Shown piece after piece: positions 9,355-25,555 of a DNA stretch of 29,813 nt. The position numbers and the translations under genes were made by a program. Each line of letters opens with the position of its first letter. The first letter of the stretch is position 1. This stretch comes from Opitutales bacterium (lineage in GTDB: Bacteria; Verrucomicrobiota; Verrucomicrobiia; Opitutales; UBA953), in NCBI GenBank assembly GCA_964201505.1, contig CAXNEN010000001.1, forward strand, positions 1-29,813, given 5' to 3'. The notes below the pieces were generated by a model. That model ran no database searches and was not told the DNA's origin. It was given only the letters and a program-made list of their open reading frames with translations.

Positions 9355-9918
9355 ATGAAACATTGGTTCACCCTCAGCCCAGCTGGCCTAACCCCGATGA
9401 AGCTTCCTTCCGAAAAGTCCGCCGGCCGGCGTAAAAGTCGCCCCACTTTCGAGTCCCTTCAGCCTCACGAGATCGAGCTAGCTGACTTCTTCGTCCGCAT
9501 GGCCGGCATCTTAGGGGTGCCGCGCTCGGTCGCCGAGATCTACGCTCTCCTTTACGTTTCTCCCGGCCCCTTAGATTTCAACCTTATTCAAGGTCGACTT
9601 GGGATGAGCAAAGGCTCTGTCAGTCAAGGACTTAAGTTCCTAAGGGGTCATGAGATGATCCTGTCTGTCAAAGAGAAGGGAGCCCGCCGCGAATGCTGGC
9701 AACCCACCCCCTCGCTGGCCGCCTCCCTCGTCGCCTTGCTTCGCAGTCAGGTCCTGCCGGCCCTCGAGCAAGCCCAGCCATCATTACAGCGCGTGCTGGC
9801 CGACGTCCAACAGCGCGGCTCTAAACCCGAAGTGATTGAGCGCCTCACCCGGCTCAATCGCTGGAATAGCCGAGCGCTTGAGCTCGCCCCCTTACTACTC
9901 CCCCCGCCGGGAGCCTGA
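9355..9918 (+). CDS. GbsR/MarR-family winged-HTH transcriptional regulator
   Basis: ILGVPRSVAEIYALLYVS..PL...IQGRLGMSKGSVSQGLKFL...G.RRE.W pattern. Alternative start at ATG 9397. Confidence 0.8.
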   Translation: MKHWFTLSPAGLTPMKLPSEKSAGRRKSRPTFESLQPHEIELADFFVRMAGILGVPRSVAEIYALLYVSPGPLDFNLIQGRLGMSKGSVSQGLKFLRGHEMILSVKEKGARRECWQPTPSLAASLVALLRSQVLPALEQAQPSLQRVLADVQQRGSKPEVIERLTRLNRWNSRALELAPLLLPPPGA

Positions 9919-9985
9919 CCCTTACTGCCGGCTCGGCCGGTGACAGTTTCCTTAATCCGTACGTGCAGGCGAAATCTCCTCCACG

Positions 9986-9997
9986 TGCGGTAGCCTG
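9986..9997 (+). promoter_or_regulatory. ops-like element (RfaH/NusG-paralog loading site)
   Basis: TGCGGTAGCCTG matches the ops consensus GGCGGTAGnnTG at every specified position except the first; sense strand, about 90 nt upstream of the first biosynthetic gene. Confidence 0.55.
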
Positions 9998-10046
9998 CCC
10001 AAATACCGCGCTCAAAAAAACCGGAAACCGGAAAGCAAGAAGTTAC

Positions 10047-10072
10047 CCCAGCCAATATTCCGGTTCCCCTTT
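10047..10072 (+). repeat. Conserved intergenic C-motif, copy 0 (shortened)
   Basis: CCCAGCCAATATTCCGGTTCCCCTTT, a variant with one heptamer core; the complementary AACCGGAAACCGGAAA lies at 10019-10034. Confidence 0.7.
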
Positions 10073-10089
10073 AATCTCCTAAATCTTCT

Positions 10090-10527
10090 ATGCGTATCGC
10101 CATCACCTCCGGCTATTTCGACCCGATGCATCGAGGCCATCTCGAGCTCCTAGACCTCTCCCGCACCCAAGGCGACGCCCTTTGGGTCATCGTCAATACC
10201 GACGCCCAAGCTGCCTTGAAGAAGGGCAAGGCCTTCATCGATCAGGATACTCGCCTGGCGGTGACCTCCGCGCTGCGCGTCGTCGACCGTGCCGTGCTCT
10301 CGGTCGACACGGACGGCTCAGTCTGCGCCACGCTCGACTGGCTCATCGGCGAGGCCAAGGCCCAAGGCCATGAGGCCATCTTCTGCAAAGGCGGCGATCG
10401 CCACGCCGGCAACATCCCCGAGATGACGGTGCTCAATAAGCATGGTGCGAAGCTCATCGACGGCTTGGGCGCCAAGATTGACAGCAGTTCCCGTATTATC
10501 GCCCAAGCTAAAAAGCCTTCCGCTTGA
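10090..10527 (+). CDS. Cytidylyltransferase-like nucleotidyltransferase (TagD/RfaE-II/RibL type)
   Basis: SGYFDPMHRGH (HxGH motif), VIVNTD, LKKGK, FCKGGDR, KIDSSSRI. Confidence 0.85.
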   Translation: MRIAITSGYFDPMHRGHLELLDLSRTQGDALWVIVNTDAQAALKKGKAFIDQDTRLAVTSALRVVDRAVLSVDTDGSVCATLDWLIGEAKAQGHEAIFCKGGDRHAGNIPEMTVLNKHGAKLIDGLGAKIDSSSRIIAQAKKPSA

Positions 10528-10559
10528 ACGAAAACCTTTCCTGACTCATCACCTATCAT

Positions 10560-11621
10560 ATGAAAAAACGCGCGCTCATCACGGGTATCACGGGCCAAGA
10601 CGGTTCGTACCTCGCCGAATTCCTCCTCGCCAAGGGCTATGAGGTTCACGGCATCATCCGCCGCTCCTCCTCCTTCAACACGTCGCGTATCGAGCACCTC
10701 TACATGGAGGACCTCGTGCGCGATATCCACACGAAGAAGATTCAGCTCCACTACGGCGACCTCGGCGACGCGACGGGCCTGATCCGCCTGATCGGCGACA
10801 TCCAGCCAGATGAGATCTACAACCTTGGCGCAATGTCCCACGTGAAGGTGTCTTTCGACATCCCAGAATATACCGCTGACACGGACGGCCTCGGTACGCT
10901 TCGCCTCCTCGAGGCGATTCGCATTCTGAAGATGGAGAAGAAGGTCCGCATCTACCAGGCCTCGACCTCCGAACTCTACGGCAAGGTCGTCGAAGTGCCG
11001 CAGTCCGAGACGACACCCTTCTACCCGCGCAGCCCTTACGGTGTCGCCAAAATCTACGCCTACTGGATCACCCGCAACTACCGCGAGGCCTACGGCATGT
11101 TCGCCTCCAACGGGATCCTCTTCAATCACGAGTCTGAGCGCCGCGGCGAGACGTTCGTCACCCGCAAGATTTCCCTCGCGGTCGCTAATATCATCCACGG
11201 CCGCCAGGACTGCCTCTTCCTCGGTAACCTTTCCTCTCAGCGTGACTGGGGCTACGCTCCCGACTTCGTGCAGTGCATGTGGCTCATCCTGCAGCACAAG
11301 CAGCCGGACGACTTCGTTATCGCGACGGGTAAGATGTACACGGTCCGCGAATTCTGCACCCACGCTTTTCGCCATGCCGGCATCGAACTCGTCTGGCAGG
11401 GCACGGGCGCCGACGAGAAGGGCGTTGACTGCAAGACGGGCAAGACGCTCGTCGCCGTCGACCCGCGCTACTTCCGCCCGACCGAGGTCGAGCAGCTGCT
11501 CGGCAACCCGGCCAAGGCCGTCCGCGAGCTGGGCTGGAATCCGCAGCAGACCTCCTTCGAACAGCTGGTCCAGAAGATGGTCGACCATGACTTGAAGTTG
11601 GTCGCCCACGAAAACCGCTGA
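10560..11621 (+). CDS. gmd: GDP-mannose 4,6-dehydratase
   Basis: [74 protein letters not shown]. Confidence 0.98.
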
Positions 11622-12562
11622 TGGGCCGCACTGCAAAAATCTACGTCGCCGGCCACCGCGGGATGGTCGGCTCCGCCATCGTCCGCGCGCTCCGCGCCGC
11701 TGGCCATACGGCTATCGTCACACGTTCGTCCGCCGAGCTCGACCTTCGCGACGGCGCCGCGACCCGCGCGTTCCTCGACGCGGAGAAGCCGGACGCCGTC
11801 GTCATGGCCGCTGCGCGCGTCGGCGGCATCAAGGCCAACTCGACCGAGCCGTACGATTTCCTTTACGATAATCTGGCGATGGCCGCTAACGTCATCGACG
11901 GCTCCCGCCGCGCCGGCGTCCGCAAGCTACTCTTCCTCGGCTCGAGCTGCATCTACCCCAAGCTAGCCCCGCAGCCGATCCGCGAGGACTCCCTGCTCAC
12001 GGGCCCGCTCGAGGTCACCAACGAAGCCTACGCGGTTGCGAAGATTGCCGGCATCAAGCTCTGCGATCACGCGCGCGCCCAGTATGGCTGCGACTTCATC
12101 AGTGCGATGCCCTGCAATCTCTACGGTACGGGCGATAACTTCTCGCTGGAGAATTCACACGTGTTGCCTGCCCTCATCCGTAAGATGCATGAGGCTAAGC
12201 TCCGAGGTGACGCCGCGCTCCGCCTCTGGGGTACGGGCACGCCGTTCCGCGAATTCCTACACGCTGACGATCTTGCGGAGGCCTGCGTTCTCCTCCTTGA
12301 GCGCTACTCCCAAGCGGGACATATCAACGTCGGCTCCGGCGAAGAACTCACCATCCGCCAGCTCGCAGAATTAATCGCGCGCGAAGTCAGCTTCACCGGA
12401 CGCTTAGAATTCGACCCAACGATGCCCGACGGCACCCCACGCAAGCTGATGGACATCTCGCGTATTCGCGCGCTCGGCTGGAAGCCACGTATCGCGCTCA
12501 AGGAAGGCATCCGCGGTGCCTACGCTTGGTATCTTGCCCATTCCGCCGAAGCGCGGAAGTAA
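11621..12562 (+). CDS. fcl: GDP-L-fucose synthase
   Basis: YVAGHRGMVGSA, AARVGGIKAN, LFLGSSCIYPK, TNEAYAVAKIAG, MPCNLYG, SHVLPAL, WGTGTPFREFLH, PDGTPRKL; coupled to gmd. Confidence 0.97.
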   Translation: MGRTAKIYVAGHRGMVGSAIVRALRAAGHTAIVTRSSAELDLRDGAATRAFLDAEKPDAVVMAAARVGGIKANSTEPYDFLYDNLAMAANVIDGSRRAGVRKLLFLGSSCIYPKLAPQPIREDSLLTGPLEVTNEAYAVAKIAGIKLCDHARAQYGCDFISAMPCNLYGTGDNFSLENSHVLPALIRKMHEAKLRGDAALRLWGTGTPFREFLHADDLAEACVLLLERYSQAGHINVGSGEELTIRQLAELIAREVSFTGRLEFDPTMPDGTPRKLMDISRIRALGWKPRIALKEGIRGAYAWYLAHSAEARK

Positions 12563-12573
12563 GAGTAGCGTTA

Positions 12574-12606
12574 GTTGACCCGTTGACCAGCTGACCCGTT
12601 GACCAG
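12574..12606 (+). repeat. Octamer tandem array X (GTTGACCM x4)
   Basis: gttgaccc gttgacca gctgaccc gttgacca; inverted partner ctggtcaa cttgtcaa at about 12835-12851. Confidence 0.85.
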
Positions 12607-12616
12607 ATGAAAGCTA

Positions 12617-12764
12617 TTTCAGGTCTCAGGTCTCGGCCCTCAGGTCTCTGGTACGGGTTATCAGGTACAGGTGCGGGTGCAGGGGTAAAATTCAGATCCC
12701 GAACTTGTACCCGAACCTGGTCACCTGAACCCGGCACCCGACGGCTGAGACCCGAGACCTGAAA
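12617..12764 (+). repeat. 148-bp hairpin element B, copy 1 (MITE-like)
   Basis: Terminal inverted repeats TTTCAGGTCTCAGGTCTCGGCC / GGCTGAGACCCGAGACCTGAAA (20 of 22 complementary); near-identical copies at 18916 and 25896. Confidence 0.85.
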
Positions 12765-12779
12765 ATGTGTTCTGCCCCG

Positions 12780-12810
12780 CCAATCATCCGGTCTCCGGTT
12801 CCCCTTTGAG
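12780..12810 (+). repeat. Conserved intergenic C-motif, copy 1
   Basis: CCAATCATCCGGTCTCCGGTTCCCCTTTGAG. Confidence 0.9.
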
Positions 12811-12866
12811 CCAGTCCGTTGTCTTCCTTGTCCACTGGTCAACTTGTCAACCGGCCAGCTAGATTG

Positions 12867-12912
12867 CCCCCTTGTCCACGTGCCCACGTGCCCCCTTGCC
12901 CCCTGAACTAAA
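12867..12912 (+). repeat. Octamer leader array Y abutting the kdsB start
   Basis: cccccttg tccacgtg cccacgtg cccccttg ccccctga actaaa ATG. Confidence 0.85.
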
Positions 12913-13647
12913 ATGCCCTCCGTCACTCTCTGTATTCCCGCCCGCATTGCCTCCACGCGTTTGCCCCGCAAGGTCCTGCTCGATCTCGGCGGTAAGCCGG
13001 TCGTGCAGCATGTCTGGGAACGCGCCAAGCAGGTCCGCCAAGCGGATCGCGTCGTGTTGCTCACGGATTCGGAAGAAGTCGCAGCCGTTGCGCGTGGCTT
13101 CGGTGCAGAGGTCTTGATGACTGACCCAGCCTGTCCTTCAGGTACGGCCCGCATGGCCAGCGTCATCGACCATCTGCCTGGCGACTTCTTCCTCAACGTC
13201 CAAGGCGATGAGCCGTTCATCCAGCCGGAGTTACTCGATGGGCTCATCACGCGCTGGAAGGAGACGAAGTGCCCGTTGGTCACCGCGGTTTCAAAAATCC
13301 ATGCGACCGAACGCCTACTTGCGACGAGCGTCGTGAAGGTCGTCCGCGCTGAGAACGGTGAAGCAATCTACTTCTCGCGTAGCCCGATCCCGCACCTCCG
13401 CGGCGTCGATCCGTCCGAATGGGTCAAGCGTCGCGACTATTGGGTTCATATCGGTGTCTATGGTTATGACCGCGCGACGCTCGCCGGCTACGCCCAGCTA
13501 AAGCCGACTGAGCTCGAGTCTACCGAATCGCTCGAGCAGCTTCGCTTCCTCGCCCACGGCCTCACCTTCCAGACGGTCGTCACGGATTATCACCCGGTCG
13601 CCATCGATACGCCTGAAGACCTCGAAGCCGCCCGGAAGATGATGTGA
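12913..13647 (+). CDS. kdsB: 3-deoxy-manno-octulosonate cytidylyltransferase (CMP-Kdo synthetase)
   Basis: IPARIASTRLPRKVL, PSGTARM, NVQGDEPF, VKVV, AIYFSRSPIP, HIGVYGY, ESLEQLRFL, IDTPEDL. Confidence 0.95.
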   Translation: MPSVTLCIPARIASTRLPRKVLLDLGGKPVVQHVWERAKQVRQADRVVLLTDSEEVAAVARGFGAEVLMTDPACPSGTARMASVIDHLPGDFFLNVQGDEPFIQPELLDGLITRWKETKCPLVTAVSKIHATERLLATSVVKVVRAENGEAIYFSRSPIPHLRGVDPSEWVKRRDYWVHIGVYGYDRATLAGYAQLKPTELESTESLEQLRFLAHGLTFQTVVTDYHPVAIDTPEDLEAARKMM

Positions 13648-13667
13648 CGCGCCGAAGGCGCGGCACA

Positions 13668-13934
13668 AGAGGCCCAGAGGCTCGGTTGACCAGAAGATGT
13701 AATGTGAGTTGACCCGTTGACCAGCTGGTCAGTTGACAAGAGAGACAACCTCTCAAGGGGAGACCGGAAACCGGAAATTTAGCTTCGGTTATATGTCCCC
13801 CACCAATCATCCGGTCTCCGGTTTCCCTTGGAGCTAACCCCGTGCCTTCCTTGCCCACTGGTCAACTTGTCAACCTGCCAGCTAGTGTGCTTCTGAGCCT
13901 CCAAGCCTCTCGCCCTCAAGCCCTCCAGCCCTCC
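13668..13934 (+). repeat. Nested inverted-repeat spacer between kdsB and kdsD (Z, X, anti-C, C, D/X', Z')
   Basis: gaggccca gaggctcg; gttgaccc gttgacca...gttgacaa; aaggggagaccggaaaccggaaa (13755-13777); C-motif 13803-13833; ctggtcaa cttgtcaa; gagcctcc aagcctct cgccctca agccctcc agccctcc. Confidence 0.85.
13803..13833 (+). repeat. Conserved intergenic C-motif, copy 2
   Basis: CCAATCATCCGGTCTCCGGTTTCCCTTGGAG. Confidence 0.88.
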
Positions 13935-13954
13935 ACTCTCCTCATCCCACTCCC

Positions 13955-14929
13955 ATGTCCACTCCCCTGAACTCCGCCCGTGCTCTCCTCCAGGCTGAAG
14001 CTGCCGCGCTCGCCGAACTCGCCACGCGGCTCGACGGCTCCTTTACGCAAGCCGTCGACCTCATCGCCGGGCACTCCGGCAAGGTCGTGCTCTGCGGCGT
14101 CGGCAAGTCTGGTCTCATCGGGCAGAAGATTGCCGCGACGCTGTGCAGCACGGGCACGCCCGCGATTTTCCTCCACGCCGGTGACGCGGTGCACGGCGAC
14201 CTCGGCATCCTTCAGCCCGGCGATCCGGTGGTGGTGATTTCTCGCTCTGGCACCACCGCCGAACTGGTCCGCCTGATCCCAGTGCTGCGCTCCTTCAAGT
14301 CCCCCATCATCGCCATTGTCGGCAACACGCAGTCGCCTTTGGCGACGCAATCCGACGTGGTCCTCGATATCGGCGCCCGCCCCGAAGCCGATCCGCTCGG
14401 CTTGGTGCCAACCACGAGTGCACTCCTGACCCTCGCCCTCGGCGACGCGCTCGCGGCGGCCCTCATGACGAAGCGCGGCTTCGGCCCCGCCGACTTTGCG
14501 CGAATCCACCCAGCCGGGCAGCTGGGTCGTAACCTGTCGCTCACCGTGGGCGAGGCGCTGCAGCCGCTCGAACGGTGTGCGTGCGCCCAGCCGGGCGATT
14601 CGCTCCGTGATACGGTCATCGCGATGACCCGTCATCCCCATGGCGCCGCCTGCGTGCTTGCCGCTGACGGGACGCTTGCCGGTCTCATCACGGACGGCGA
14701 TCTCCGGCGCGCGCTCAGCCGCGGGGTCGATATCAACGCCGCCCGGGCCGCCGACATCATGACAGTCAATCCCGTGCGCGCTCATGCCCCCATGTCCCTC
14801 GGCGAGGCGGCGCGCATCATGGAGGACCGCCCTTCGCAGATTTCCGTACTACCAGTCACCGACGCTGCGTCCAACCGCTGTCTCGGGCTCATTCGCATCC
14901 ATGATATTTATCAGGCCGGGATTGTTTGA
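13955..14929 (+). CDS. kdsD: Arabinose-5-phosphate isomerase (KdsD/KpsF/GutQ; SIS + CBS pair)
   Basis: GVGKSGLIGQKIAATLCSTGTPA, AVHGDLG, SRSGTTAEL, PTTS, HPAGQLG, GLITDGDLRR. Confidence 0.93.
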   Translation: MSTPLNSARALLQAEAAALAELATRLDGSFTQAVDLIAGHSGKVVLCGVGKSGLIGQKIAATLCSTGTPAIFLHAGDAVHGDLGILQPGDPVVVISRSGTTAELVRLIPVLRSFKSPIIAIVGNTQSPLATQSDVVLDIGARPEADPLGLVPTTSALLTLALGDALAAALMTKRGFGPADFARIHPAGQLGRNLSLTVGEALQPLERCACAQPGDSLRDTVIAMTRHPHGAACVLAADGTLAGLITDGDLRRALSRGVDINAARAADIMTVNPVRAHAPMSLGEAARIMEDRPSQISVLPVTDAASNRCLGLIRIHDIYQAGIV

Positions 14930-14945
14930 GCTGCCACTGTGTTGG

Positions 14946-15068
14946 GTAGGGACGTGATTGCCATCACGTCCGTTCGCTTGAAGCCGCTGGAGGCTGATTA
15001 ATTCGGCTAAGGCCCGACGACTTTACGACCTCGGTTTCGAACGGCGGCGATAGCAATCGCCGCCCTAC
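14946..15068. repeat. GTAG-REP doublet (REPIN/BIME-like), 123 bp, copy 1
   Basis: GTAG-GGACGTGAT-TGCC-ATCACGTCC-GTTCGC, 60-bp spacer, inverted CGAAC-GGCGGCGAT-AGCA-ATCGCCGCC-CTAC. Confidence 0.88.
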
Positions 15069-15076
15069 CCAAGACA

Positions 15077-15104
15077 CCCAGCCAATCATCCGGTCTCCCC
15101 TTGG
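15077..15104 (+). repeat. Conserved intergenic C-motif, copy 3 (one heptamer deleted)
   Basis: CCCAGCCAATCATCCGGTCTCCCCTTGG. Confidence 0.8.
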
Positions 15105-15120
15105 TTGCCATCTTTCTTCC

Positions 15121-15154
15121 GCCACCTGCCACCTGAGGCCGCCACCTGCCACCC
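15121..15154 (+). repeat. Heptamer array W (GCCACCT) upstream of the ligase-like gene
   Basis: gccacct gccacct gaggcc gccacct gccaccc. Confidence 0.75.
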
Positions 15155-15186
15155 GAAGCGTTTCAAGCCCTCCTGTCCTCCCTTAA

Positions 15187-16854
15187 ATGTCCTCCTCCTC
15201 CAAATTCACCTCCCGTGAACTGACCGTGATGATCCTCGCCGGAATCATCTTGTTGCTCGCGCCGTGGGGCTGGGCCGGCGTGGTGCTTTGGACGGTTTGC
15301 GCGGCGTTAGGTTTTGCGACCGCCGCGTTCTTGGCGGTCTTCACCGAGGCGCGGGCGCAACGACTCGCGATGGCGGTATGGTCGATCGGCCTACTGATCG
15401 CCCTAATCTCCGCGGCGGTCGAAGGCCATAGCCTCTTTACCTATCGCTGGCTGGATTACGTCTGCTTCCCGTTCTGTGCGCTCCTCGGCTCGGCGCTGGC
15501 TTCCTTTCTCCTTTCGCGTGACCTGACTTCGTATCCCGCCTCCGACGCTCGCTGGGAACTCTTCCGCTCGGTGCCTTTCTGGGCCGGCGTCGCGCTCTTC
15601 GCCTACTTCGCCATCCAGGATCTCAATGCCTGGGGTATCGTCGTCGATCGCGAGGCCTTTTGGGCGAAGCAAGGCCTGCCGGGCATCGAGGTCGGTAAGT
15701 TCGACGTCCGCCTTCAACCTTACCTGAGCTGGCTTCCTTCGGGCCTGAACGCTCCGTTCTCCGCCGACGATACGTCACAGCAGCCGATGAACGCCTGGCG
15801 CATGATGATGATTCTCGGTGCGCCTTGGCTGCTTTTCTGCGCGTTGCGCTCCGGACTTCGTCGCCGTCGCTCCTACGTCATCCTCGCCTGGGTCTCGGTG
15901 CTCATGTCCGGCGTTATCGGGGTCTTCGGCTTTCTCAGCCAGTATTCCTACGGCACGATCCTCGGCTATCCGGTGCCATTCAACGCCGTCTGCTTCGGTC
16001 CCTTCCTGTGCCGCAATCATGCCGGCGTGTATCTCTATCTCCACGCTGCCCTCGCGTTGGCGCTGACCTTTTGGCACATCCGGCGCGCGTCCGGCGACGC
16101 GATGCGCGGCGGCCCTCATCTGGTCGGCGCCTTCCTGGCCTTCGCCTTGAGCTTACTCGTCGCTCTCACCGGGAGCACCGCGGGCGTCGCGGTGGCCCTG
16201 GCGCTGATGTGCATCTCGGTTCCGCTCGCCTATTTCTTCGGCTTCCCGGGTTCACAGGGTTCGCGCCGGCAGATCATCGCAATCACGGGGGCTTCGATGG
16301 CAGTCGCCGCCGCCGCGATTCTGGCCACGGCCGACCTCAATCCAATCCTCGACCGCTTCAAGCAGAAGGCGGCGGCTTACCAGCTAGCCGGTACTGACGA
16401 TCGGGCGCCGCTCCGTCACGCCACCATAGCGCTCATCGCCGACGGTGCCCAGAGTGAGCGCGTTTGGGTCGGCTTCGGCGCCGGCTCTTACCGCTGGATT
16501 GCGCCACCTTATCAGGCGCAGCAGAAGGAGCTGCAGCGCGACGGCCGGCTCTTCTACCGCTCGATCCATGCGCACAACGATTGGCTGGAGATGCTCGCGG
16601 AGTGGGGCATCCTCGGGGTGCTTCCGGTCTTGGCCGGCCTCCTCTGGCTGAGTCGACGGATCATCCGCGCTTTCCACGCGGGCCATCCGGAAACGGTGCC
16701 GCTTGCGCTGGTGCTCCTGCTGATGGCGGCTCATGCCGCGATTGACTTGCTCATCTGGTTCACGCCGTTGATGTTCGCGGCCGCCTTCATCGCGGCCGCC
16801 ATGCTCTGCCTCACCGAACAGTCTTCGGCCGAGAGGGAACGCAAACTTCCCTGA
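15187..16854 (+). CDS. O-antigen ligase family (Wzy_C/WaaL-like) polytopic membrane protein
   Basis: Many TM segments; GPFLCRNHAGVYL, TGSTAG, GFGAGSY and HAHNDWLEMLAEWGILG motifs typical of O-antigen ligase family members. Confidence 0.8.
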   Translation: MSSSSKFTSRELTVMILAGIILLLAPWGWAGVVLWTVCAALGFATAAFLAVFTEARAQRLAMAVWSIGLLIALISAAVEGHSLFTYRWLDYVCFPFCALLGSALASFLLSRDLTSYPASDARWELFRSVPFWAGVALFAYFAIQDLNAWGIVVDREAFWAKQGLPGIEVGKFDVRLQPYLSWLPSGLNAPFSADDTSQQPMNAWRMMMILGAPWLLFCALRSGLRRRRSYVILAWVSVLMSGVIGVFGFLSQYSYGTILGYPVPFNAVCFGPFLCRNHAGVYLYLHAALALALTFWHIRRASGDAMRGGPHLVGAFLAFALSLLVALTGSTAGVAVALALMCISVPLAYFFGFPGSQGSRRQIIAITGASMAVAAAAILATADLNPILDRFKQKAAAYQLAGTDDRAPLRHATIALIADGAQSERVWVGFGAGSYRWIAPPYQAQQKELQRDGRLFYRSIHAHNDWLEMLAEWGILGVLPVLAGLLWLSRRIIRAFHAGHPETVPLALVLLLMAAHAAIDLLIWFTPLMFAAAFIAAAMLCLTEQSSAERERKLP

Positions 16855-16856
16855 CC

Positions 16857-18872
16857 TTGCGGCAGCTTATCCAGCATCTGGGCTCGGGTCACACCGAGCT
16901 CCTTGCCGTCCCCGCCCCGGGGCCGCGCAGCGGCCGCCTGCTCGTCCGCGCGACGCGCTCGCTGGTCTCCCTCGGCACCGAACGGATGCTGGTCGAGTTC
17001 GGCCGCGGCGGCTGGCTAAGCAAAGCCCGTCAGCAGCCGGAAAAATTCCGCGCGGTGCTTGCGAAGGTCCGCGCTGAAGGCCTCTTCGCTACCGTCGCTG
17101 CGGTTCGCAGCAAGCTCGCCCAGCCTATCCCGCTTGGCTACTGCCACGTCGGCCAAGTCCTCGATGCGGGCGACGTCCCCGGCTTCGCTGGCGGCGACCG
17201 CGTGGTCTCCAATGCTCCACACGCTGAAGTAGTCTCGGCCTCGCCCGCCTTTGCGGCGCGCATCCCGGCGGCGGTCTCCGACGAGCAGGCCAGTTTCACG
17301 CCGCTTGCCGCCGTCGCGCTCCAAGGGCTCCGCCTGCTCGCTGTCCAACCGGGTGAGACGGTTGTGGTGATGGGGCTCGGCCTTCTCGGCCAGCTTGCCG
17401 TCCGTCTGCTCCGTGCCCGCGGAGTCCATGTCGTCGGCATTGATCCTGATTCCGCGAAGTGCGCCACGGCTGCCTTGGCTGGCGCGGTCATCTGGTCACC
17501 CCCCGCTCCACTTCCGGCGATTTTGGCCGCCGGCGCCGCCGGGGTACTCATCACGGCCAGTACTTCCTCCGACGAACCAGTTAACCTGGCCGCCCGTCTC
17601 TGCCGTCGCCGCGGCCGCGTGGTGCTCGTGGGCGTCACGGGCCTCACGCTCAATCGAGCGGACTTCTACCAGAACGAGGTTTCCTTTCAGGTCTCGCGCT
17701 CCTACGGCTCCGCCGATCCGGCCGATCGTTCTTCGGCCCGCGCCAATTTCGACGAGGTCCTCGCGCTCCTAGCGTCCGGCGCGCTCGATGTCGCCCCCTT
17801 ACTGACGTCACGTCATACGTTCGATGAGGCGCCGAAGATCTATGATGACCTGCGTCGGCCCGGCGCCTACGGACTGCTCATCGAGTACGCCGTCTCGAAC
17901 GAATCCCTCGTGCGCACTTTACCTGGCTTAGATTGGGATAGCCGGACCACCGGCGGGGTCGGCGTCATCGGCTGCGGGAACTTCGCCGCCCGCGTCCTCG
18001 TGCCAGAGCTCCGTCGCCAAGGCGTATCGCCTTCGGTCTTCGCTTCGGCTAACGGCCTTTCGGCCAAGCTTCTCGCCGGAGCGGCCGCTGCCTTAACGAC
18101 CGATACTTTCGCGCTACTTGACCACCCGGGGGTCTCCACCGTCTTCATCGCGACCCGACATGATGAGCATGGTGCACTTGCCCGGTCGGCGCTGGTCTCC
18201 GGTAAATCTAGCTGGGTCGAAAAACCGCTCGCGCTCACCGAAGTGGACCTCGCTGCGACCATGGCGGTCGCGCGTTCTTCCTCCGGCCTCCTCGCCGTCG
18301 GCTTCAACCGTCGCTTCGCCCCGCTCGCGCTCCGTCTCCGCGCCGCGCTCGCCGCCCGCCAGGGCGCTCGCCGCTTCACCGTCGACGTGAACGCCGGTCG
18401 TCTGCCTCCTGACCATTGGACGCTCGACCCGAAGCAGGGCGGGGGACGAATCGTCGGCGAGGCCTGTCACTTCGTGGACCTGCTGCGCTTTCTCTCCGGC
18501 AGCGCCATCGTCTCCGTCCGCGCCATGTCGCGCGACGTCGATGGTCAGGACGGCGGCTGCTTCGAACTGAGTTTCGCCAACGCCGATCTCGCCGTTCTCA
18601 ACTACCGTACCGACCAACCGGCTCATCTGCCCAAGGAGCGCATCGCGGTCGAAGGCGAAGGCTGGTCGGCCGAGATCGACAACTGGAAATCTTTGCGGTC
18701 GCAGAACCTCCCCGGCGCCTCTGCATTGCCTGCCTGGCTCGGCGGCCCCGCCCGCGGTAAAGGCCATGCCGAAGCCCTCGCCGCTTTCCTTGTCGGTACG
18801 TCCGTCCCCCTCGCCGAGATCGAAGAAGTCTCTCGCTGGAGTATTCGGATGCAGGGGATGGTGCGAAGCTAG
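16857..18872 (+). CDS. Bi-domain oxidoreductase (Zn-ADH-like + Gfo/Idh/MocA)
   Basis: TTG start 2 nt after the upstream stop; SLVSLGTERML, PLGY, GLGLLGQ, QVSRSYG in the N-domain; VIGCGNFA, ATRHDEH, WVEKPLA, VGFNRRFAP, GGRIVGEACHFVD in the C-domain. Confidence 0.9.
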   Translation: MRQLIQHLGSGHTELLAVPAPGPRSGRLLVRATRSLVSLGTERMLVEFGRGGWLSKARQQPEKFRAVLAKVRAEGLFATVAAVRSKLAQPIPLGYCHVGQVLDAGDVPGFAGGDRVVSNAPHAEVVSASPAFAARIPAAVSDEQASFTPLAAVALQGLRLLAVQPGETVVVMGLGLLGQLAVRLLRARGVHVVGIDPDSAKCATAALAGAVIWSPPAPLPAILAAGAAGVLITASTSSDEPVNLAARLCRRRGRVVLVGVTGLTLNRADFYQNEVSFQVSRSYGSADPADRSSARANFDEVLALLASGALDVAPLLTSRHTFDEAPKIYDDLRRPGAYGLLIEYAVSNESLVRTLPGLDWDSRTTGGVGVIGCGNFAARVLVPELRRQGVSPSVFASANGLSAKLLAGAAAALTTDTFALLDHPGVSTVFIATRHDEHGALARSALVSGKSSWVEKPLALTEVDLAATMAVARSSSGLLAVGFNRRFAPLALRLRAALAARQGARRFTVDVNAGRLPPDHWTLDPKQGGGRIVGEACHFVDLLRFLSGSAIVSVRAMSRDVDGQDGGCFELSFANADLAVLNYRTDQPAHLPKERIAVEGEGWSAEIDNWKSLRSQNLPGASALPAWLGGPARGKGHAEALAAFLVGTSVPLAEIEEVSRWSIRMQGMVRS

Positions 18873-18903
18873 AGGCCCGGAGGCCCAGAGGCCCCGTTGA
18901 CCA
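18872..18903 (+). repeat. Octamer array Z starting within the stop codon
   Basis: TA-gaggcccg gaggccca gaggcccc gttgacca. Confidence 0.8.
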
Positions 18904-18915
18904 GAGGAAATATAG

Positions 18916-19063
18916 TTTCGGGTCCCAGGTCTCGGCCCCCAGGTCTCAGGTACGGGTTATCAGGTGCAGGTGCGGGTGCGGGGGTAAAATTCAGATCCTG
19001 AACCTGTACCCGAACCTGAACCTCTGAACCTAGCTCCCGACGGCCGAGACCCGAGACCTGAAA
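18916..19063 (+). repeat. 148-bp hairpin element B, copy 2
   Basis: Aligns base for base with copy 1 (TTTCGGGTCCCAGGTCTCGGCC...GGCCGAGACCCGAGACCTGAAA). Confidence 0.85.
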
Positions 19064-19075
19064 AGTATGTCCCCA

Positions 19076-19106
19076 CCCAGTCATCTGATCTCCGGTCCCC
19101 CTTTAG
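19076..19106 (+). repeat. Conserved intergenic C-motif, copy 4 (diverged)
   Basis: CCCAGTCATCTGATCTCCGGTCCCCCTTTAG, in the same position relative to element B and module D as in the fcl-kdsB gap. Confidence 0.7.
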
Positions 19107-19213
19107 TTACGCCGTCTGCCTCCCTTGCCCACTAATCAACTTGTCAACCGGCCAGCTAGTGTTCCCCTCCGGCCCTCGTGCCCTCCCTTCAGCCCCTCCA
19201 TTCCTCGATTCCC

Positions 19214-20437
19214 ATGCCCTCCCTCTGCGTCCTCGGCCTCGGCTACATTGGCCTTCCGACCGCGTCCATCTTCGCGACGAAGGGACGCCGCGTCCTCGGT
19301 GTCGACGTCTCGGCGTCGGTCGTTGAGACGATCAACAGCGGCCGCATTCATATCCAGGAGCCGGACCTCGACGTGCTTGTGCGCGCCGCGGTGCAATCGG
19401 GCAACTTGAAGGCCGCCACCACGCCAGCCGCCGCCGATGTCTTTATCCTCGCGGTCCCGACGCCTTTCTTCGCCTCGGCCGATGGCGCCCGTGTGCCGGA
19501 CCTGTCGTTCGTCGAGGCCGCGACCCGCTCGATCGCTCCTTTCGTCGCCGCCGGCAACCTGATCGTCCTCGAGTCCACTTCACCCGTCGGCACGACCGAG
19601 AAGGTGAAAGGCTGGCTCGAGGCCGAACTTGCGAAACTTGGTCGTAAGGCCGACGGCCTACTCTACGCCCATTGCCCTGAGCGCATCCTGCCCGGCCAGA
19701 TGCTCAAGGAACTCGTCTCCAATGATCGCATCTGCGGAGGCCTCACGCCAGCCGCCGCCGAGAAGGCCCGCGACCTCTACGCGACGTTCTGTACGGCGCA
19801 GATCTTCCTGACCGACGCCCGCACGGCCGAATTAGCGAAGCTGACCGAGAACGCTTACCGCGACGTCAACATCGCCTTTGCCAACGAGCTCTCGCTGATC
19901 TGCGATAAGCTCTCGATCGATGTCTGGGAACTCATCCGCTTGGCCAACCGCCATCCGCGCGTGAAGATTCTCCAGCCAGGCCCCGGGGTCGGCGGACACT
20001 GTATCGCGGTCGACCCCTGGTTCATCGTCGACGCCGCTCCGGCCGAAGCCCGCCTTTTGCGCACCGCCCGCGAGGTCAACGACTCGAAGCCGCATCACGT
20101 CATCGCCCAGGTCCGTGCCGCGGCGGGCAAGGACGCCGTCGTCGCCTGCCTTGGCCTCGCCTTCAAGGCGAACGTCGACGACCTCCGCGAATCTCCCGCC
20201 GTCGAGATTGCCGCGCATCTCGCGGACGCCGGTCTGAAGGTACTCGCCGTCGAGCCGCACGTCACCGCGCTACCGAAGGCGCTGCAGGGCAGGGCGGAAC
20301 TCGTTTCGCTCGCCGACGCGCTGGCCCGCGCCTCCGTCGTTGTCCTCCTTGTCGATCACCGCGCCTTCGCCGGTCTCACCCTTGCCCAGCTCTCCGGCAA
20401 GAAATTGATTGATACGCGGGGAGTGGTTCGGGCCTGA
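19214..20437 (+). CDS. wecC: UDP-N-acetyl-D-mannosamine dehydrogenase
   Basis: VLGLGYIGLPTA, IHIQEPDL, AVPTPF, ESTSPVGTT, CPERILPG, AELAKLTENAYRDVNIAFANEL, GPGVGGHCIAVDPWF, GLAFKANVDDLRESP. ATG 19214 preferred over GTG 19178. Confidence 0.92.
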   Translation: MPSLCVLGLGYIGLPTASIFATKGRRVLGVDVSASVVETINSGRIHIQEPDLDVLVRAAVQSGNLKAATTPAAADVFILAVPTPFFASADGARVPDLSFVEAATRSIAPFVAAGNLIVLESTSPVGTTEKVKGWLEAELAKLGRKADGLLYAHCPERILPGQMLKELVSNDRICGGLTPAAAEKARDLYATFCTAQIFLTDARTAELAKLTENAYRDVNIAFANELSLICDKLSIDVWELIRLANRHPRVKILQPGPGVGGHCIAVDPWFIVDAAPAEARLLRTAREVNDSKPHHVIAQVRAAAGKDAVVACLGLAFKANVDDLRESPAVEIAAHLADAGLKVLAVEPHVTALPKALQGRAELVSLADALARASVVVLLVDHRAFAGLTLAQLSGKKLIDTRGVVRA

Positions 20438-20498
20438 AGGCCCGACCATGCCGAGTTGACCCGTTGACCCGTTGGCAAGTTGACAAGGAATGCAATGG

Positions 20499-20522
20499 GT
20501 AGGGTCGGGACCGCGTCACGAC
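20499..20522 (+). repeat. Extra degenerate GTAG-REP in tandem upstream of doublet copy 2
   Basis: GTAG-G-GTCGGGAC-CGC-GTCACGAC (8-bp stem, one mismatch). Confidence 0.6.
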
Positions 20523-20535
20523 AGTGCTGCCTTGG

Positions 20536-20658
20536 GTAGGGACGTGATTGCCATCACGTCCGTTCGCCAAGCGACTCTGTCGCCTGTGCGACTTAGCTAA
20601 GACCCGACAACTTCGCGCCCTCGGTCCCGAACGGCGGCGATGGCAATCGCCGCCCTAC
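20536..20658. repeat. GTAG-REP doublet, 123 bp, copy 2
   Basis: Same arms as copy 1 (right loop GGCA), 60-bp homologous spacer. Confidence 0.88.
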
Positions 20659-20665
20659 CAAAAGC

Positions 20666-20706
20666 CCCAGCCAATCATCCGGTCTCCGGTTCCCCTTTGA
20701 GTTAAG
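20666..20706 (+). repeat. Conserved intergenic C-motif, copy 5
   Basis: CCCAGCCAATCATCCGGTCTCCGGTTCCCCTTTGAGTTAAG, 41 of 41 identical to 24241-24281. Confidence 0.92.
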
Positions 20707-20735
20707 CCCACTTGTCCCCTTGCCCACGTGCCAGC

Positions 20736-22682
20736 GTGTCCCCTCGTCCAGTGCTCCTTCCTCTCCTCCATCTCCTCGGACCGCGTTGGCTCGCCCGTCG
20801 CGTTTGCTGGGCGTGCGAGCGCAGGCTGGGAGTTTGGGAATGGCACTCGCCGATGCGGCCATGGAAGGATTTCGCAAAAGAGTTCTACCCTGCCGCCTGG
20901 CGTAAGTCCGCGCCGCGCCTGCCGATCGCGAACCTCGATCGGGCCCACCTCGCGCCGCCGCTCGAAGCCTGGTCCGTCGAATCCGGCTGCGCTCCGACCG
21001 CGGAAGCGGCCGCCTTCGCCCGCGGTTGCGCGCGCGTTTTCTCCCATCGCTTGGTCGAAGTCGGTCGCCCCGATCGCTGGACGTGCAGCGTCCTCACCGG
21101 GCATTCGACTGATCCTTACAAGCACTGGTCCCGGCTCCGTGACACGGACTCCGACGATATCAAGGGCGTTTGGGAGCTCTCCCGCTTCTCGTGGGCCTAC
21201 GCTCTCGTTCGTGCTTGGCTGCGCGATGGGGACGAACGTCATGCCGAACTTTTCTGGGCGACGCTCGAGGATTGGATGGCGCGTAATCCGCCCAACCGCG
21301 GCCCAAACTGGATGTGCGGGCAGGAAGCAGCCTTTCGCCTAATCGCCGTCACCTTCGCCGTTCAGGCCTTCCGCGATCACCCGTCTTCGACCGATGCGCG
21401 TCTGACGCTTGCGGCCCGCTTGGCCGACGCCACGGGTCGCCGCATCCGCTTCCACCTAGATTACGCGCTTTCGCAGCAGAACAACCACGGCATCGCCGAG
21501 GCTATTGGGCTACAGACCGCCGACGTGTTCTGGGCGGCGCCCTATTCTCCAACGCGGCGATACTTTGCAGGGGTGAGTGAGCTCACGGAGCAGTGCCGCG
21601 AGCTTATCGGCCCCGACGGCGGCTTCAGCCAGCATTCCTCAAACTACCATCGGCTGTTGTTGCAATTACTCACTTGGTCGGAAGTAACCGCGCGCTCCGT
21701 CGGTGATACCTTGCCCGAAGTAGTCCGAGACAAGGCCGCCGTCGCGACCGACTTCCTTGCCACGTTGATGGAGGCGGACGGTACCGTCCCGCGCTTCGGT
21801 GCCGATGACGGCGCAAACCTCTTGCCGTTGAGCGGATGCGGGTTCGAAGACTTCCGCCCAGCGATCGGTGCCGCCCTCGCGCTCTTCAAAGGTGAACGCC
21901 TTGCGGCGGGTCCGTGGGATGAGGCAGCCCTCCTCCTGCTGGGGCCTGTCTCCGCGAGCGCCAACCCCGCATTGCGCCCCCCCGCCGAGTTCCGTGATGC
22001 CGGCGTCTTCCAGCTCCGCCATCCGCGTGGGACGCTCTTCTTCCGGGCACCGACGGAATTCCGTACGCGCCCCTCCCATGCCGATCAGCTGCATGTCTCG
22101 CTCCGTTGGGATGGAGAGTGGATTACCGAAGATCCGGGTACCTATTCTTATAACGCCCCCGGAGGATGGGATGGTTTCGCCGGATCCCGCTTCCATAATC
22201 TTGTCTCGGTCGGGGAGTTCGACTCCATGCGTCGAATCGGCCGCTTCCTCTGGCTTCCCTGGGTCGGTTGCGAGTTGCGCTGGCAGTTTGATGGCGTCGC
22301 TGCCTCGCATCTCGGCTTCCCGGGCTTCAAGTCCCAGCGGCGCGTCGTCAAGGTCGCGAATGGCTTTGTGATCATCGATCGACTAACAGGCCTCCTGAAG
22401 CAAGACGGTCGCTTCACCTTACGTTGGCACGGGCGCACCCGCGAAGGCCTCGAGCAATTGACCGTCGCCTGTTCCGCGCCCTCGACGGAAGAATTTGTCA
22501 CCGCTTTACCCGACGCGGGGGAAGGGTGGCACTCGACGCACTATGGATCAAAAGACCCCTCCTGGTGTCGCCGCATCTCCGCCCTGGGCCATGACGTTAC
22601 TTTCGTCACCGCGCTCGGCTGTTCTCTGCGCCTTGAAGCCCACAGTTTTTTTGTCGACGGCGAAGAGTATCCGCTCGAGTGA
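20736..22682 (+). CDS. Heparinase II/III family protein (polysaccharide lyase-like)
   Basis: DIKGVWELSRFSW, NPPNRGPNWMCGQE, SQQNNH.IAE, DGGFSQHSSNYHR, PRFGADDG, HADQLH, DPGTYSY, HNLV. GTG 20736 chosen; the exact start is uncertain (20712-20751). Confidence 0.85.
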   Translation: MSPRPVLLPLLHLLGPRWLARRVCWACERRLGVWEWHSPMRPWKDFAKEFYPAAWRKSAPRLPIANLDRAHLAPPLEAWSVESGCAPTAEAAAFARGCARVFSHRLVEVGRPDRWTCSVLTGHSTDPYKHWSRLRDTDSDDIKGVWELSRFSWAYALVRAWLRDGDERHAELFWATLEDWMARNPPNRGPNWMCGQEAAFRLIAVTFAVQAFRDHPSSTDARLTLAARLADATGRRIRFHLDYALSQQNNHGIAEAIGLQTADVFWAAPYSPTRRYFAGVSELTEQCRELIGPDGGFSQHSSNYHRLLLQLLTWSEVTARSVGDTLPEVVRDKAAVATDFLATLMEADGTVPRFGADDGANLLPLSGCGFEDFRPAIGAALALFKGERLAAGPWDEAALLLLGPVSASANPALRPPAEFRDAGVFQLRHPRGTLFFRAPTEFRTRPSHADQLHVSLRWDGEWITEDPGTYSYNAPGGWDGFAGSRFHNLVSVGEFDSMRRIGRFLWLPWVGCELRWQFDGVAASHLGFPGFKSQRRVVKVANGFVIIDRLTGLLKQDGRFTLRWHGRTREGLEQLTVACSAPSTEEFVTALPDAGEGWHSTHYGSKDPSWCRRISALGHDVTFVTALGCSLRLEAHSFFVDGEEYPLE

Positions 22683-22698
22683 AGACACGAGCGATCGA

Positions 22699-22726
22699 GA
22701 GTATGGAGTATTGAGTATGGAGTATC
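22699..22726 (+). repeat. Heptamer array V (GAGTATK x4) with inverted partner at 22837-22856
   Basis: gagtatg gagtatt gagtatg gagtatc ... tatactc atactcc atactc. Confidence 0.85.
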
Positions 22727-22745
22727 GGGGGAGTGCTTGCCTTGG

Positions 22746-22807
22746 GTAGGGATGCGATGACATCGCATCCGTCAGCCACCAAGAAGGACGCGATAGTGAT
22801 CACGTCC
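22746..22807. repeat. Degenerate short REP doublet
   Basis: GTAG-GGATGCGAT-GAC-ATCGCATCC, 15-bp gap, GGACGCGAT-AGTG-ATCACGTCC lacking the CTAC foot. Confidence 0.7.
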
Positions 22808-22870
22808 CGGCCTTAATACGGTCTCCTGCCTCTTCCTATACTCATACTCCATACTCGACACTCTCGTATT

Positions 22871-22915
22871 TCCGCTTGTCCCCGTGCCCCCGTGCCAGCT
22901 TGCCCCCTAAACTAA
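22871..22915 (+). repeat. Octamer leader array Y abutting the wecB start
   Basis: tccgcttg tccccgtg cccccgtg ccagcttg ccccctaa actaa ATG. Confidence 0.85.
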
Positions 22916-24067
22916 ATGCCCTCCCTCGCCCTCATCGTCGGTACGCGCCCCGAGTGCATTAAGCTCGCGCCGGTGTTCGCCGAGTTGCGTCGTGCCGGCA
23001 AGGTGCGTCCGCTGCTCGTCTCGACCGGCCAGCATCGCGAACTGCTCGATCAGGCGTTGGGCTCTTTCGGCCTCAAGCCCGATGTCGACCTCGGCCTGAT
23101 GCAGCCTGGCCAATCGTTGCCGGAGCTTTCGAGCCGCGTGCTGACTAGCATGTCCGCCTGGCTCGCCGACGCGAAGCCATCGGCTATCCTTGTACAGGGC
23201 GACACTACCACGGTGTTGGGCTCGGCGATGGCTGCCTTCTACGCGGGCATTCCGGTCGGACACGTCGAAGCCGGCTTACGCACGGATGACCTACGCTCGC
23301 CGTTCCCGGAAGAGATGAACCGCCGCGTGACCTCTACGCTCGCTCGCTGGCATTTCTGCCCGACCGAACTGGCCAAGGCCAATCTCCTGCGCGAAGGCAT
23401 TCCCGCGGCCCACTGCCACGTCACCGGCAATACGGTCATCGACGCTCTGCTCTCCACCCGTGCGCGGATTGGCGGCATCGAGGCCGCCGCCGTCGGCGCC
23501 CGCCTCGGTATCGCCCCCGCGTTCGTCGCCTCGCATCTCGCGGCGCCGAAATCCCGCTGGATCTTAGTCACCGGACATCGTCGCGAGTCGTTCGGCCCCG
23601 GTTTCGAGAATCTGTGCCGTGGCATCCGTCAGCTGGTTGATGCCCACCCCGATCTCGGCGTTGTCTACCCCGTCCATCTCAACCCACAGGTCCAGGAGCC
23701 GGTCCGTCGCCTTCTCGGTGGTCATCCGCGTATCGCGCTCGCCGCTCCGGCGGCCTACGAGGATTTCATCTGGCTGATGGATCGTTCGGCTTTCGTATTG
23801 ACCGATTCTGGCGGCGTGCAGGAAGAAGCCCCTTCGCTCGGCAAGCCCGTGCTCGTCATGCGCGACAACACGGAACGCCCCGAAGGACTGGCCGCTGGTA
23901 CAAGTGAGCTCGTCGGTACGGACGCCGCCCGTATTTTCGCCGCCGCGACACGCTTACTTACCGACCCCGCCGAATACGCTCGTCGGTCCCAGCTTCGTAA
24001 TCCTTACGGTGACGGCACCGCGGCTGTGAAGATTGCGCGGCTGATGGAGTCGGAATTGCACGATTAG
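22916..24067 (+). CDS. wecB: UDP-N-acetylglucosamine 2-epimerase (non-hydrolysing)
   Basis: VGTRPECIKLAP, STGQHRE, VQGDTTT, HVEAGLRT, SPFPEEMNR, TGNTVIDAL, TGHRRE, YPVHLNP, TDSGGVQEEAPSLGKPVLVMRDNTERPE, PYGDG. Confidence 0.96.
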   Translation: MPSLALIVGTRPECIKLAPVFAELRRAGKVRPLLVSTGQHRELLDQALGSFGLKPDVDLGLMQPGQSLPELSSRVLTSMSAWLADAKPSAILVQGDTTTVLGSAMAAFYAGIPVGHVEAGLRTDDLRSPFPEEMNRRVTSTLARWHFCPTELAKANLLREGIPAAHCHVTGNTVIDALLSTRARIGGIEAAAVGARLGIAPAFVASHLAAPKSRWILVTGHRRESFGPGFENLCRGIRQLVDAHPDLGVVYPVHLNPQVQEPVRRLLGGHPRIALAAPAAYEDFIWLMDRSAFVLTDSGGVQEEAPSLGKPVLVMRDNTERPEGLAAGTSELVGTDAARIFAAATRLLTDPAEYARRSQLRNPYGDGTAAVKIARLMESELHD

Positions 24068-24098
24068 TTGACCCGTTGAAAAGTTGGCAAGTTGACAA
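24067..24098 (+). repeat. Octamer array X starting within the wecB stop codon
   Basis: TA-gttgaccc gttgaaaa gttggcaa gttgacaa; a matching array lies at about 20455-20486. Confidence 0.8.
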
Positions 24099-24110
24099 GG
24101 GATGCAATGG

Positions 24111-24233
24111 GTAGGGACGTGATTGCCATCACGTCCGTTCGCCAAGAGACTTGGTTGTCTGTGCGACTTAGCTAAGACACAATAACTTCGCGACTTAGGG
24201 CTCGAACGGCGGCGATGGCAATCGCCGCCCTAC
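24111..24233. repeat. GTAG-REP doublet, 123 bp, copy 3
   Basis: Arms identical to copy 2 between the GTAG and CTAC feet; 60-bp spacer homologous to copy 2. Confidence 0.88.
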
Positions 24234-24240
24234 CCATAAA

Positions 24241-24281
24241 CCCAGCCAATCATCCGGTCTCCGGTTCCCCTTTGAGTTAAG
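24241..24281 (+). repeat. Conserved intergenic C-motif, copy 6
   Basis: Identical to 20666-20706. Confidence 0.92.
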
Positions 24282-24290
24282 TTGGTTTGC

Positions 24291-24335
24291 TCCCCTTGCC
24301 CCCGTGCCCACGTGCCAGCTTGTCCCCTAAACTAA
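24291..24335 (+). repeat. Octamer leader array Y abutting the GT4 start
   Basis: tccccttg cccccgtg cccacgtg ccagcttg tcccctaa actaa TTG. Confidence 0.85.
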
Positions 24336-25553: not shown

Positions 25554-25555
25554 CC

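Follow-up and report, generated by a model that had tools for sequence, protein, structure and literature searches.

A dispersed imperfect palindrome of freshwater Opitutales with other hairpin elements in its loop

The spacers of a lipopolysaccharide (LPS)/polysaccharide gene cluster from a freshwater member of the Opitutales carry seven copies of a conserved sequence, the C-motif, which forms the right arm, the better conserved of the two, of an 81–87 bp imperfect palindrome (the C palindrome). The copies lie in a stretch of 29,813 nucleotides (nt), here called the window, which is one whole contig (CAXNEN010000001.1) of a 65%-complete, 1.6-Mb metagenome-assembled genome (MAG; GCA_964201505.1; the source genome, label G000). 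With a probability of roughly 0.7, we read the C palindrome as a dispersed repeat akin to repetitive extragenic palindromic (REP) sequences, bacterial interspersed mosaic elements (BIMEs), and miniature inverted-repeat transposable elements (MITEs), with a loop favored by other hairpin elements. Among the genomes searched, the repeat occurs in a single genus of freshwater Opitutales with small genomes. On this reading it is selfish or mosaic repeat DNA and not a control signal of the polysaccharide operon, and the C family is new among the known REP/BIME-like mosaic intergenic repeats. An earlier reading of this DNA (the sequence-only reading) had explained the motif either as a protein-binding or RNA-processing site, for example for reloading an antitermination complex along the operon, or as a target next to which other elements insert. 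The antitermination proposal is not supported by our analysis, and the insertion-site proposal is supported in part.

Results

The C-motif is one arm of a palindrome

The C palindrome comprises a left arm (CTCAAAGGGAGACCGGAAACCGG..GCTGNGG..CAT), a short AT-rich loop, and a right arm (CCCCAGCCAATCATCCGGTCTCCGGTTTCCCTTTGAG), the arms being ~37 nt long. The earlier description of the C-motif as nonpalindromic thus holds for the motif alone and fails once its partner is taken into account, with a left arm present at 13752–13787 and a trace of one at 10019–10032. Clean copies have sharp outer ends, and their imperfect arms (CTCAAAGGGAGACCGG... and ...CCGGTTTCCCTTTGAG) serve as terminal inverted repeats, as in MITEs; a flanking direct repeat of 2–10 nt, the target-site duplication of a MITE, was absent from 14 of 15 clean 81–87 bp elements. 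Neither the C-motif nor the left arm carries a GTAG or CGTC tag, in agreement with the earlier statement that the motif is not a GTAG REP, a designation for which the neighboring doublets do qualify.

The unpaired inner part of the motif (CCCCAGCCAATCAT) is conserved as well as the stem part, as judged from the information profile. The same G·T wobble and A·C mismatch between the arms recur in 26 of 43 clean hairpins; these mispairs look like copies of a master sequence, not like helices kept by compensatory change, and they are symmetric on both strands. Folding energies, too, show no strand preference, the motif strand being no more stable than its complement (32 vs 64 copies, in a set contaminated by non-hairpin forms), and there is thus no evidence for a strand-specific RNA. 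No U tract of the kind found in intrinsic terminators follows the hairpin, the right arm ending in ...CCCTTTGAG and giving way to variable sequence without a T run. The Rfam and covariance search that the sequence-only reading had suggested returned two tRNAs only for the whole window at gathering thresholds, and nothing for 9900–26200 at E≤1. Outward-facing arm pairs, such as might bound an autonomous parent element, lie 1.1–3.9 kb apart with no recurrent spacing in the 8-kb loci and the incomplete MAG.

Copies are dispersed, intergenic, and free of strand bias

A genome-wide scan, also suggested earlier, found 30 matches to a 17-nt core of the motif on both strands of the source MAG, against 0 for the reversed control. 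An nhmmer profile built from the genome copies gave ~31 strong hits, nearly all intergenic. Of 24 species sampled from the genus, 17 have the core, which is missing from all 16 genomes that represent the order's other families, and the matches of a public genome scan were freshwater Opitutales/Opitutae (Verrucomicrobiota) MAGs. Across species whose flanking genes are 72–89% identical in DNA, the 37-nt consensus is almost invariant. Our literature search found no description of this motif or of the repeats of this genus.

For the positions of the repeat relative to genes, we classified 155 strong copies in 116 related loci, which were chosen by the presence of the right arm; genes were called with a simple codon-usage open reading frame (ORF) caller trained on the source MAG, the kin genomes are not independent of one another, and MAGs break at repeats. 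Of these copies, 148 are intergenic. The principal contexts were:

Between co-directional genes, sense: 36 copies
Between co-directional genes, antisense: 37 copies
Between convergent genes: 38 copies
Between divergent genes: 8 copies

The sole positional bias is an avoidance of promoter-only regions, most copies lying downstream of at least one gene. The same avoidance is known for REP-type repeats (PMC3733652). Because sense and antisense counts are nearly equal across the genus, the sense-strand rule put forward by the sequence-only reading is only local: it stands inside this operon and breaks down elsewhere, where both orientations are about equally common. This genus-wide dispersal, with as many antisense as sense copies and numerous copies between convergent genes, speaks against a reload, RNA-processing, or protein-binding site laid out along an operon. 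C-motif orientation was compared with local skew at third codon positions (GC3 skew), which was negative for 86 copies and positive for 83, although the 8-kb loci are too short for this purpose and coding-strand skew dominates in them. Third positions on the coding strand of the source genome are strongly C-rich (GC3 skew −0.285), which swamps any replication-related skew on short contigs.

The loop is empty, or holds REP doublets or rod-like hairpins

The "variable slot" noted earlier beside the motif is the apical loop of the C palindrome. Using separate profiles for the left and right arms, we obtained the following census, in which solo left arms are under-sampled in the related loci because those loci were chosen by the right arm:

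Empty palindrome: 6 in the source genome, 49 in related loci
Filled palindrome: 3 in the source genome, 28 in related loci
Solo right arm: 19 in the source genome, 84 in related loci
Solo left arm: 2 in the source genome, 18 in related loci

The loop gap measures 2–29 nt in the empty palindromes (n = 55) and mostly 73–295 nt in the filled ones (n = 31). The fillers are REP doublets in 12 of the 31 cases and rod-like heptamer hairpins of type B or D in the other 19. The left arm is often absent, leaving solo right arms such as those that make up most of the window copies. The proposal that the motif marks an insertion target agrees much better than the reload-site proposal with this record of empty and filled arm pairs, and with one orthologous spacer in which four species have a REP doublet where a fifth has element B, but recombination between mosaic spacers could also generate the filled and empty states. 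The pairing of slot and motif has an exception in the spacer at 25853–26112, which has element B and no C-motif.

Element B is a rod-like heptamer hairpin of ~148 nt, present in the window at 12617–12764, 18916–19063, and ~25900–26042, with the ends TTTCAGGTC...GACCTGAAA. At the right end, the sequence (GAGACCCGAGACC) is similar to the left arm of C and able to pair with the C-motif. In relatives, element B is found inside the loop of the C palindrome, as is a second family of rods, built on GTCACC words (loci L100, L009, L029, and L111).

The neighboring REP doublets consist of GGGTAGGG plus an 18–20 nt hairpin, arranged in inverted pairs, and thus have the structure of REP doublets forming hairpins (REPINs). 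A REP end stands within 16 nt of 17 of the 31 source-genome C copies, at a spacing of 4–7 nt and always on the loop side, compared with an expectation of ~0.5 by our own estimate from the intergenic space. Four source-genome contigs (C165, C112, C186, and C174) carry REPIN-C-REPIN(-C) arrays. Across the genus the two families are loosely linked in number, with C/REP counts of 14/4 in genome G004, 15/3 in G024, 6/93 in G003, and 0/14 in G013, and about half of the C copies in relatives have no REP nearby.

The genus encodes proteins of 140–180 aa resembling REP-associated tyrosine transposases (RAYTs), with HUH and Tyr motifs, whose genes are each placed between a GGTAGG and a CCTACC. C-motif cores were absent from the flanks of 11 such loci in relatives or lay more than 800 nt away. 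At least 4–5 sequence subfamilies of these proteins occur across loci L129–L139 (genomes G015, G001, G022, G011, G007, G024, G010, G005, G044, and G003). The source genome, 65% complete, gave no PF01797 match, and the best-scoring Y1_Tnp genes of the genus, of 310–330 aa, are not flanked by these REPs.

Orthologous spacers turn over rapidly

We compared the kdsB-kdsD spacer in the source genome and 15 relatives, whose flanking proteins are mostly 92–98% identical (81% for kdsD at one locus). The spacer measures 22 nt in two relatives and 240–390 nt in 13 others. The longer versions are widely differing mosaics, with the C palindrome bracketed by GTTGACC or GCCACC, element B with C, a rod with C, REPINs alone, or other words; among the 16 spacers, 7 contain the C-motif (the source genome included). 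Its lack from the same spacer in many sibling species further weakens the reading of the motif as an operon signal. At locus L151, a REPIN and a C-motif stand side by side at a position where both are lacking in close relatives. In another orthologous spacer, the C palindrome holds the REPIN in the four species and element B in the fifth mentioned above, and is absent from others. No individual copy is conserved, since orthologous spacers differ in their C content and in their mosaic.

Genome G072 has two kdsB-kdsD versions (contig C68 vs C41; compare G011:C102), one with a 22-nt spacer and one with ~286 nt. The double version in G072 reflects strain heterogeneity in the bin or a duplication, and could be an empty/filled pair.

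Copies in the window and their surroundings

A 31-mer from the motif matched the + strand with 0 mismatches at 12780, 20671, and 24246 and with 2 mismatches at 13803, and gave 0 matches in 100 dinucleotide-preserving shuffles; the nhmmer profile adds 15077–15098, 19077–19104, and 10046–10071. The seven sense-strand copies are therefore where the sequence-only reading had placed them, in spacers of the cluster, four being near-perfect, one a short form, and two degenerate. The copies and their immediate neighbors, with no strand assigned to the REPINs, are:

10046–10071, + strand: degenerate C-motif with one heptamer (nhmmer 12.4 bits); complementary left-arm trace at 10019–10032
12775–12810, + strand: C-motif without left arm, directly 3′ of element B at 12617–12764 (0 mismatches; nhmmer 43.5 bits)
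13752–13833, + strand: complete "empty" C palindrome with left arm 13752–13787, AT-rich loop, and right arm 13797–13833
14944–15070: GTAG REP doublet (REPIN) immediately 5′ of the short-form C-motif, with GGTAGGG at 14945 and CCCTACC ending at 15070
15077–15107, + strand: short-form C-motif with one CCGGTCT heptamer and, after it, a GCCACC heptamer array (nhmmer 23.4 bits, model positions 2–23)
19077–19104, + strand: diverged C-motif 3′ of element B at 18916–19063 (nhmmer 12.3 bits; 3 mismatches to the 17-mer core)
20534–20659: REPIN abutting a C-motif on its 5′ side, with one further single REP ahead of it at 20497
20665–20701, + strand: C-motif without left arm, 5 nt past the REPIN end (0 mismatches; 47.4 bits)
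22815–22826, + strand: probable C-motif remnant AATACGGTCTCC, directly after a decayed REP doublet at 22744–22808 (sub-threshold in nhmmer)
24109–24235: REPIN immediately 5′ of a C-motif
24241–24276, + strand: C-motif without left arm, 5 nt past the REPIN end (0 mismatches; 46.6 bits)

The segments 20666–20706 and 24241–24281 are exactly alike, as the reported 41/41 identity had it, and the suspected remnant near 22815 is plausible. The spacers that hold the two identical copies, 20438–20711 (274 nt) and 24068–24335 (268 nt), are near-duplicates, with 198 identical positions when aligned. The short form at 15077–15098 has one CCGGTYT heptamer fewer than the full motif and also occurs in the orthologous kdsB-kdsD spacers of loci L141, L142, and L151. 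The palindrome at 13752–13833 scores 24.9 bits on the − strand and 42.1 bits on the + strand, and is enclosed by inverted arrays of GTTGACC-type heptamers.

Large spacers in general are flanked by inverted tandem words of 7–8 nt, those on the left being rich in G and those on the right in C. The pairs are GTTGACC../..GGTCAAC, GAGTATG../..CATACTC, and GGTGGC../..GCCACC, at 12563–12616/12811–12900, 13700–13745/13850–13885, and 22690–22735/22830–22870, and the same bracket words recur in relatives in other combinations. Because these arrays are inverted, a whole spacer folds as one nested rod; for that around 13752–13833, the computed fold has −115.6 kcal/mol (z −5.2) and leaves a C-rich leader unpaired.

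The genes from 10090 to 29504 form the LPS/polysaccharide cluster and include those for GDP-mannose dehydratase, an epimerase, KdsB, KdsD, a Wzy_C ligase, UDP-glucose dehydrogenase, heparinase II/III, UDP-GlcNAc 2-epimerase, and a GT4 glycosyltransferase. According to the simple ORF caller, the next start codon lies ~10–121 nt from each window C-motif. Upstream of the cluster, the ORF at 9355–9918 has only a sub-threshold MarR_2 match (E 0.006, 17 bits vs a cut-off of 27). A 98-aa ORF at 25556–25852, placed two ORFs before the gene for an AMP-binding enzyme (26830–28173), matches PP-binding (carrier protein) weakly. C-rich tracts ending in ..CCCCT(R)AACTAAA precede the start codons near 12895–12915, 22900–22918, 24315–24338, and 15170–15189, with no visible Shine-Dalgarno (SD) sequence; they resemble the heptamer repeats that stand in place of the SD sequence in Beggiatoaceae and Cyanobacteria (PMC4679880).

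Discussion

Fast turnover together with a near-invariant consensus typifies repeat families that undergo constant renewal while some sequence-specific constraint acts on them. A trans-acting protein recognizing the conserved sequence would spread the family. The apical loop would take in other hairpins, namely, the GTAG REP doublets linked to RAYTs and the two rod-like heptamer types B and D, which would enter by insertion into the loop. The uniform sense orientation within the operon would best be explained by local copying of whole spacers, which we propose because two window spacers are near-duplicates. Any effect on the operon, through long RNA hairpins predicted in the polycistronic transcript, would be incidental, although effects on processing or stability are possible.

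Several observations weigh against the C palindrome being a mobile repeat of this kind. The near-invariance of the consensus calls for a sequence-specific constraint, which could come from a host function instead of a transposase. Neighboring copies in the same operon are always co-oriented (7 sense/sense, 3 antisense/antisense, and 0 mixed), though the numbers are small and include the window copies. Neither a mobilizing enzyme nor an autonomous parent of the C palindrome was identified in the loci and genomes searched. Insertion was not caught in the act, and filled and empty palindromes are also obtainable by recombination between mosaic spacers, the REPIN and C-motif at L151 apparently having arrived together. 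Finally, our gene calls are home-made, the related loci were picked by the right arm, and the MAGs break at repeats.

Three other explanations compete with a dispersed REP/BIME/MITE-like palindrome. The motif might be a DNA site under host selection, bound by an abundant protein such as gyrase or an IHF/HU-like nucleoid protein; it would spread with the mosaic repeats to which it belongs and be kept for useful binding. Such a site would account for an unpaired inner part (CCCCAGCCAATCAT) that is conserved like the stem, for the invariance of the consensus across species, and for an independence of orientation combined with placement between REP units (contigs C165, C112, and C186) that recalls the linker motifs of BIMEs. 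Against it, the motif is missing from 7 of the 24 species sampled in the genus, and orthologous spacers as short as 22 nt lack the repeat, so that no single site is required; we regard this explanation as improbable. The composite of REP doublet and C-motif might instead be one unit, the C-motif being the tail of a REPIN that a RAYT moves as a whole. The spacing from the REP end CCCTACC to CCCCAG (4–7 nt) and the relative orientation are indeed fixed in 17 source-genome copies, and the joint at L151 fits a joint arrival, but in relatives about one copy in two lacks a neighboring REP, the numbers of the two families are only loosely tied, RAYT genes are flanked by REPs and not by C-motifs, and the position 5′ of C is also occupied by the non-REP rods B and D. 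The odds are accordingly long for a REPIN tail.

Little more can be said for a C-motif that acts in mRNA, as a processing, stabilizing, or antitermination-reload signal for long operons. Its attraction lies in the window, where all seven copies are sense and 10–121 nt ahead of start codons, and in the kdsB-kdsD spacers of seven genomes (the source genome included), where the C copies are again all sense across at least 4 mosaics. The spacer RNA is predicted to form a very stable rod with a C-rich unpaired leader, and metatranscriptome contigs cover 12643–12810, ending at the outer end of the motif as an assembly does at a repeat boundary. These contigs come from two libraries and do not prove transcription; the four public runs consist of contigs and give no RNA ends, strand, or level, and the joints in the DNA run are not assignable to this locus, the repeats being multi-copy in the community. 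Taken over the genus, however, the motif occurs in 36 sense and 37 antisense co-directional copies and in 38 convergent ones; many relatives have the same operon spacer without it; there is no Rfam match at E≤1 in 9900–26200; the ops core GGCGGTAG is absent from the motif; and the two strands fold about equally well. We therefore consider an mRNA signal very unlikely.

Setting the dispersed palindrome beside known systems clarifies its affinities. In the BIMEs of Escherichia coli, REP units (also called palindromic units, PUs) are joined by conserved non-REP motifs, and the L motif of BIME-1 binds IHF. The C-motif is likewise a conserved non-REP motif at a fixed spacing next to or between GTAG REP units (REPIN-C-REPIN-C on contig C165), is independent of gene orientation, and is depleted between divergent genes; unlike the BIME motifs, it is half of an 81–87 bp palindrome, often occurs without a REP, hosts non-REP rods, and belongs to Verrucomicrobiota. 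The ops/JUMPstart elements of polysaccharide operons serve to recruit RfaH. They share with the C-motif only a noncoding context within a long polysaccharide cluster, whereas the C-motif lacks their core, in keeping with the absence of a match stated by the sequence-only reading, and is multi-copy, found on both strands and between convergent genes, and not conserved at orthologous positions.

Along with BIMEs, the nearest likeness is to the "target palindromes" surrounding REP dimers in Anabaena variabilis, Thermomicrobium roseum, and Halothiobacillus neapolitanus (Di Nocera et al. 2013, PMC3733652), a study that also describes mosaic intergenic regions and an Opitutus terrae genome rich in GTAG repeats. 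There, as here, REP doublets are central in a longer conserved palindrome, and as in T. roseum many copies are unoccupied; the C palindrome differs in its sequence, in a loop that also holds two families of rod-like hairpins, and in the frequent loss of its left arm. With REPIN-RAYT systems (Nunvar 2010; Bertels and Rainey 2011, PMC3116915), the genus shares neighboring doublets that fit the REPIN structure and REP-flanked RAYT-like genes, and the C family itself shares a master-sequence pattern and the lack of target-site duplications; in contrast, a GTAG/CGTC tag is missing from the C palindrome, RAYT genes are not flanked by it, and its copy number is only loosely tied to that of REPs. Palindromes of the MITE type (ERIC/IRU, Correia elements, and enterobacterial RU-1/2/3; PMC2759123) are roughly 100–170 bp. 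The C palindrome, at ~85 bp, resembles them in its imperfect inverted arms, its intergenic, multi-copy occurrence, and its restriction to one lineage, and departs from them in having no target-site duplication and in showing no related autonomous insertion sequence in the 8-kb loci and incomplete MAG searched. In sum, it has the joining motif of a BIME and the terminal inverted repeats of a MITE, and lacks the tag and cognate-RAYT flanking of a REP/REPIN, the duplicated target of a MITE, an ops/JUMPstart core, an Rfam family, and the features of an intrinsic terminator.

These results remove a tempting false lead, leaving the polysaccharide operon without a special repeated control signal, and document a well-defined new repeat family in abundant, little-studied lake bacteria. 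The family bears on MAG assembly, since contigs break at these repeats, on the annotation of 5′ and 3′ untranslated regions, and on where REPINs insert. More tentatively, and with the balance tipped against it, the C palindrome may be a dedicated "landing pad," with its AT-rich loop just after the conserved CAT as the favored insertion point for at least three unrelated hairpin elements (RAYT-mobilized REPINs and the two rod-like heptamer types), kept nearly invariant through a trans-acting protein. If so, it would offer a natural system for studying target choice in RAYT-type single-strand transposition and the growth of palindromes within palindromes. The C family shows with unusual clarity how small hairpin elements nest within one another and rebuild intergenic spacers between closely related species.

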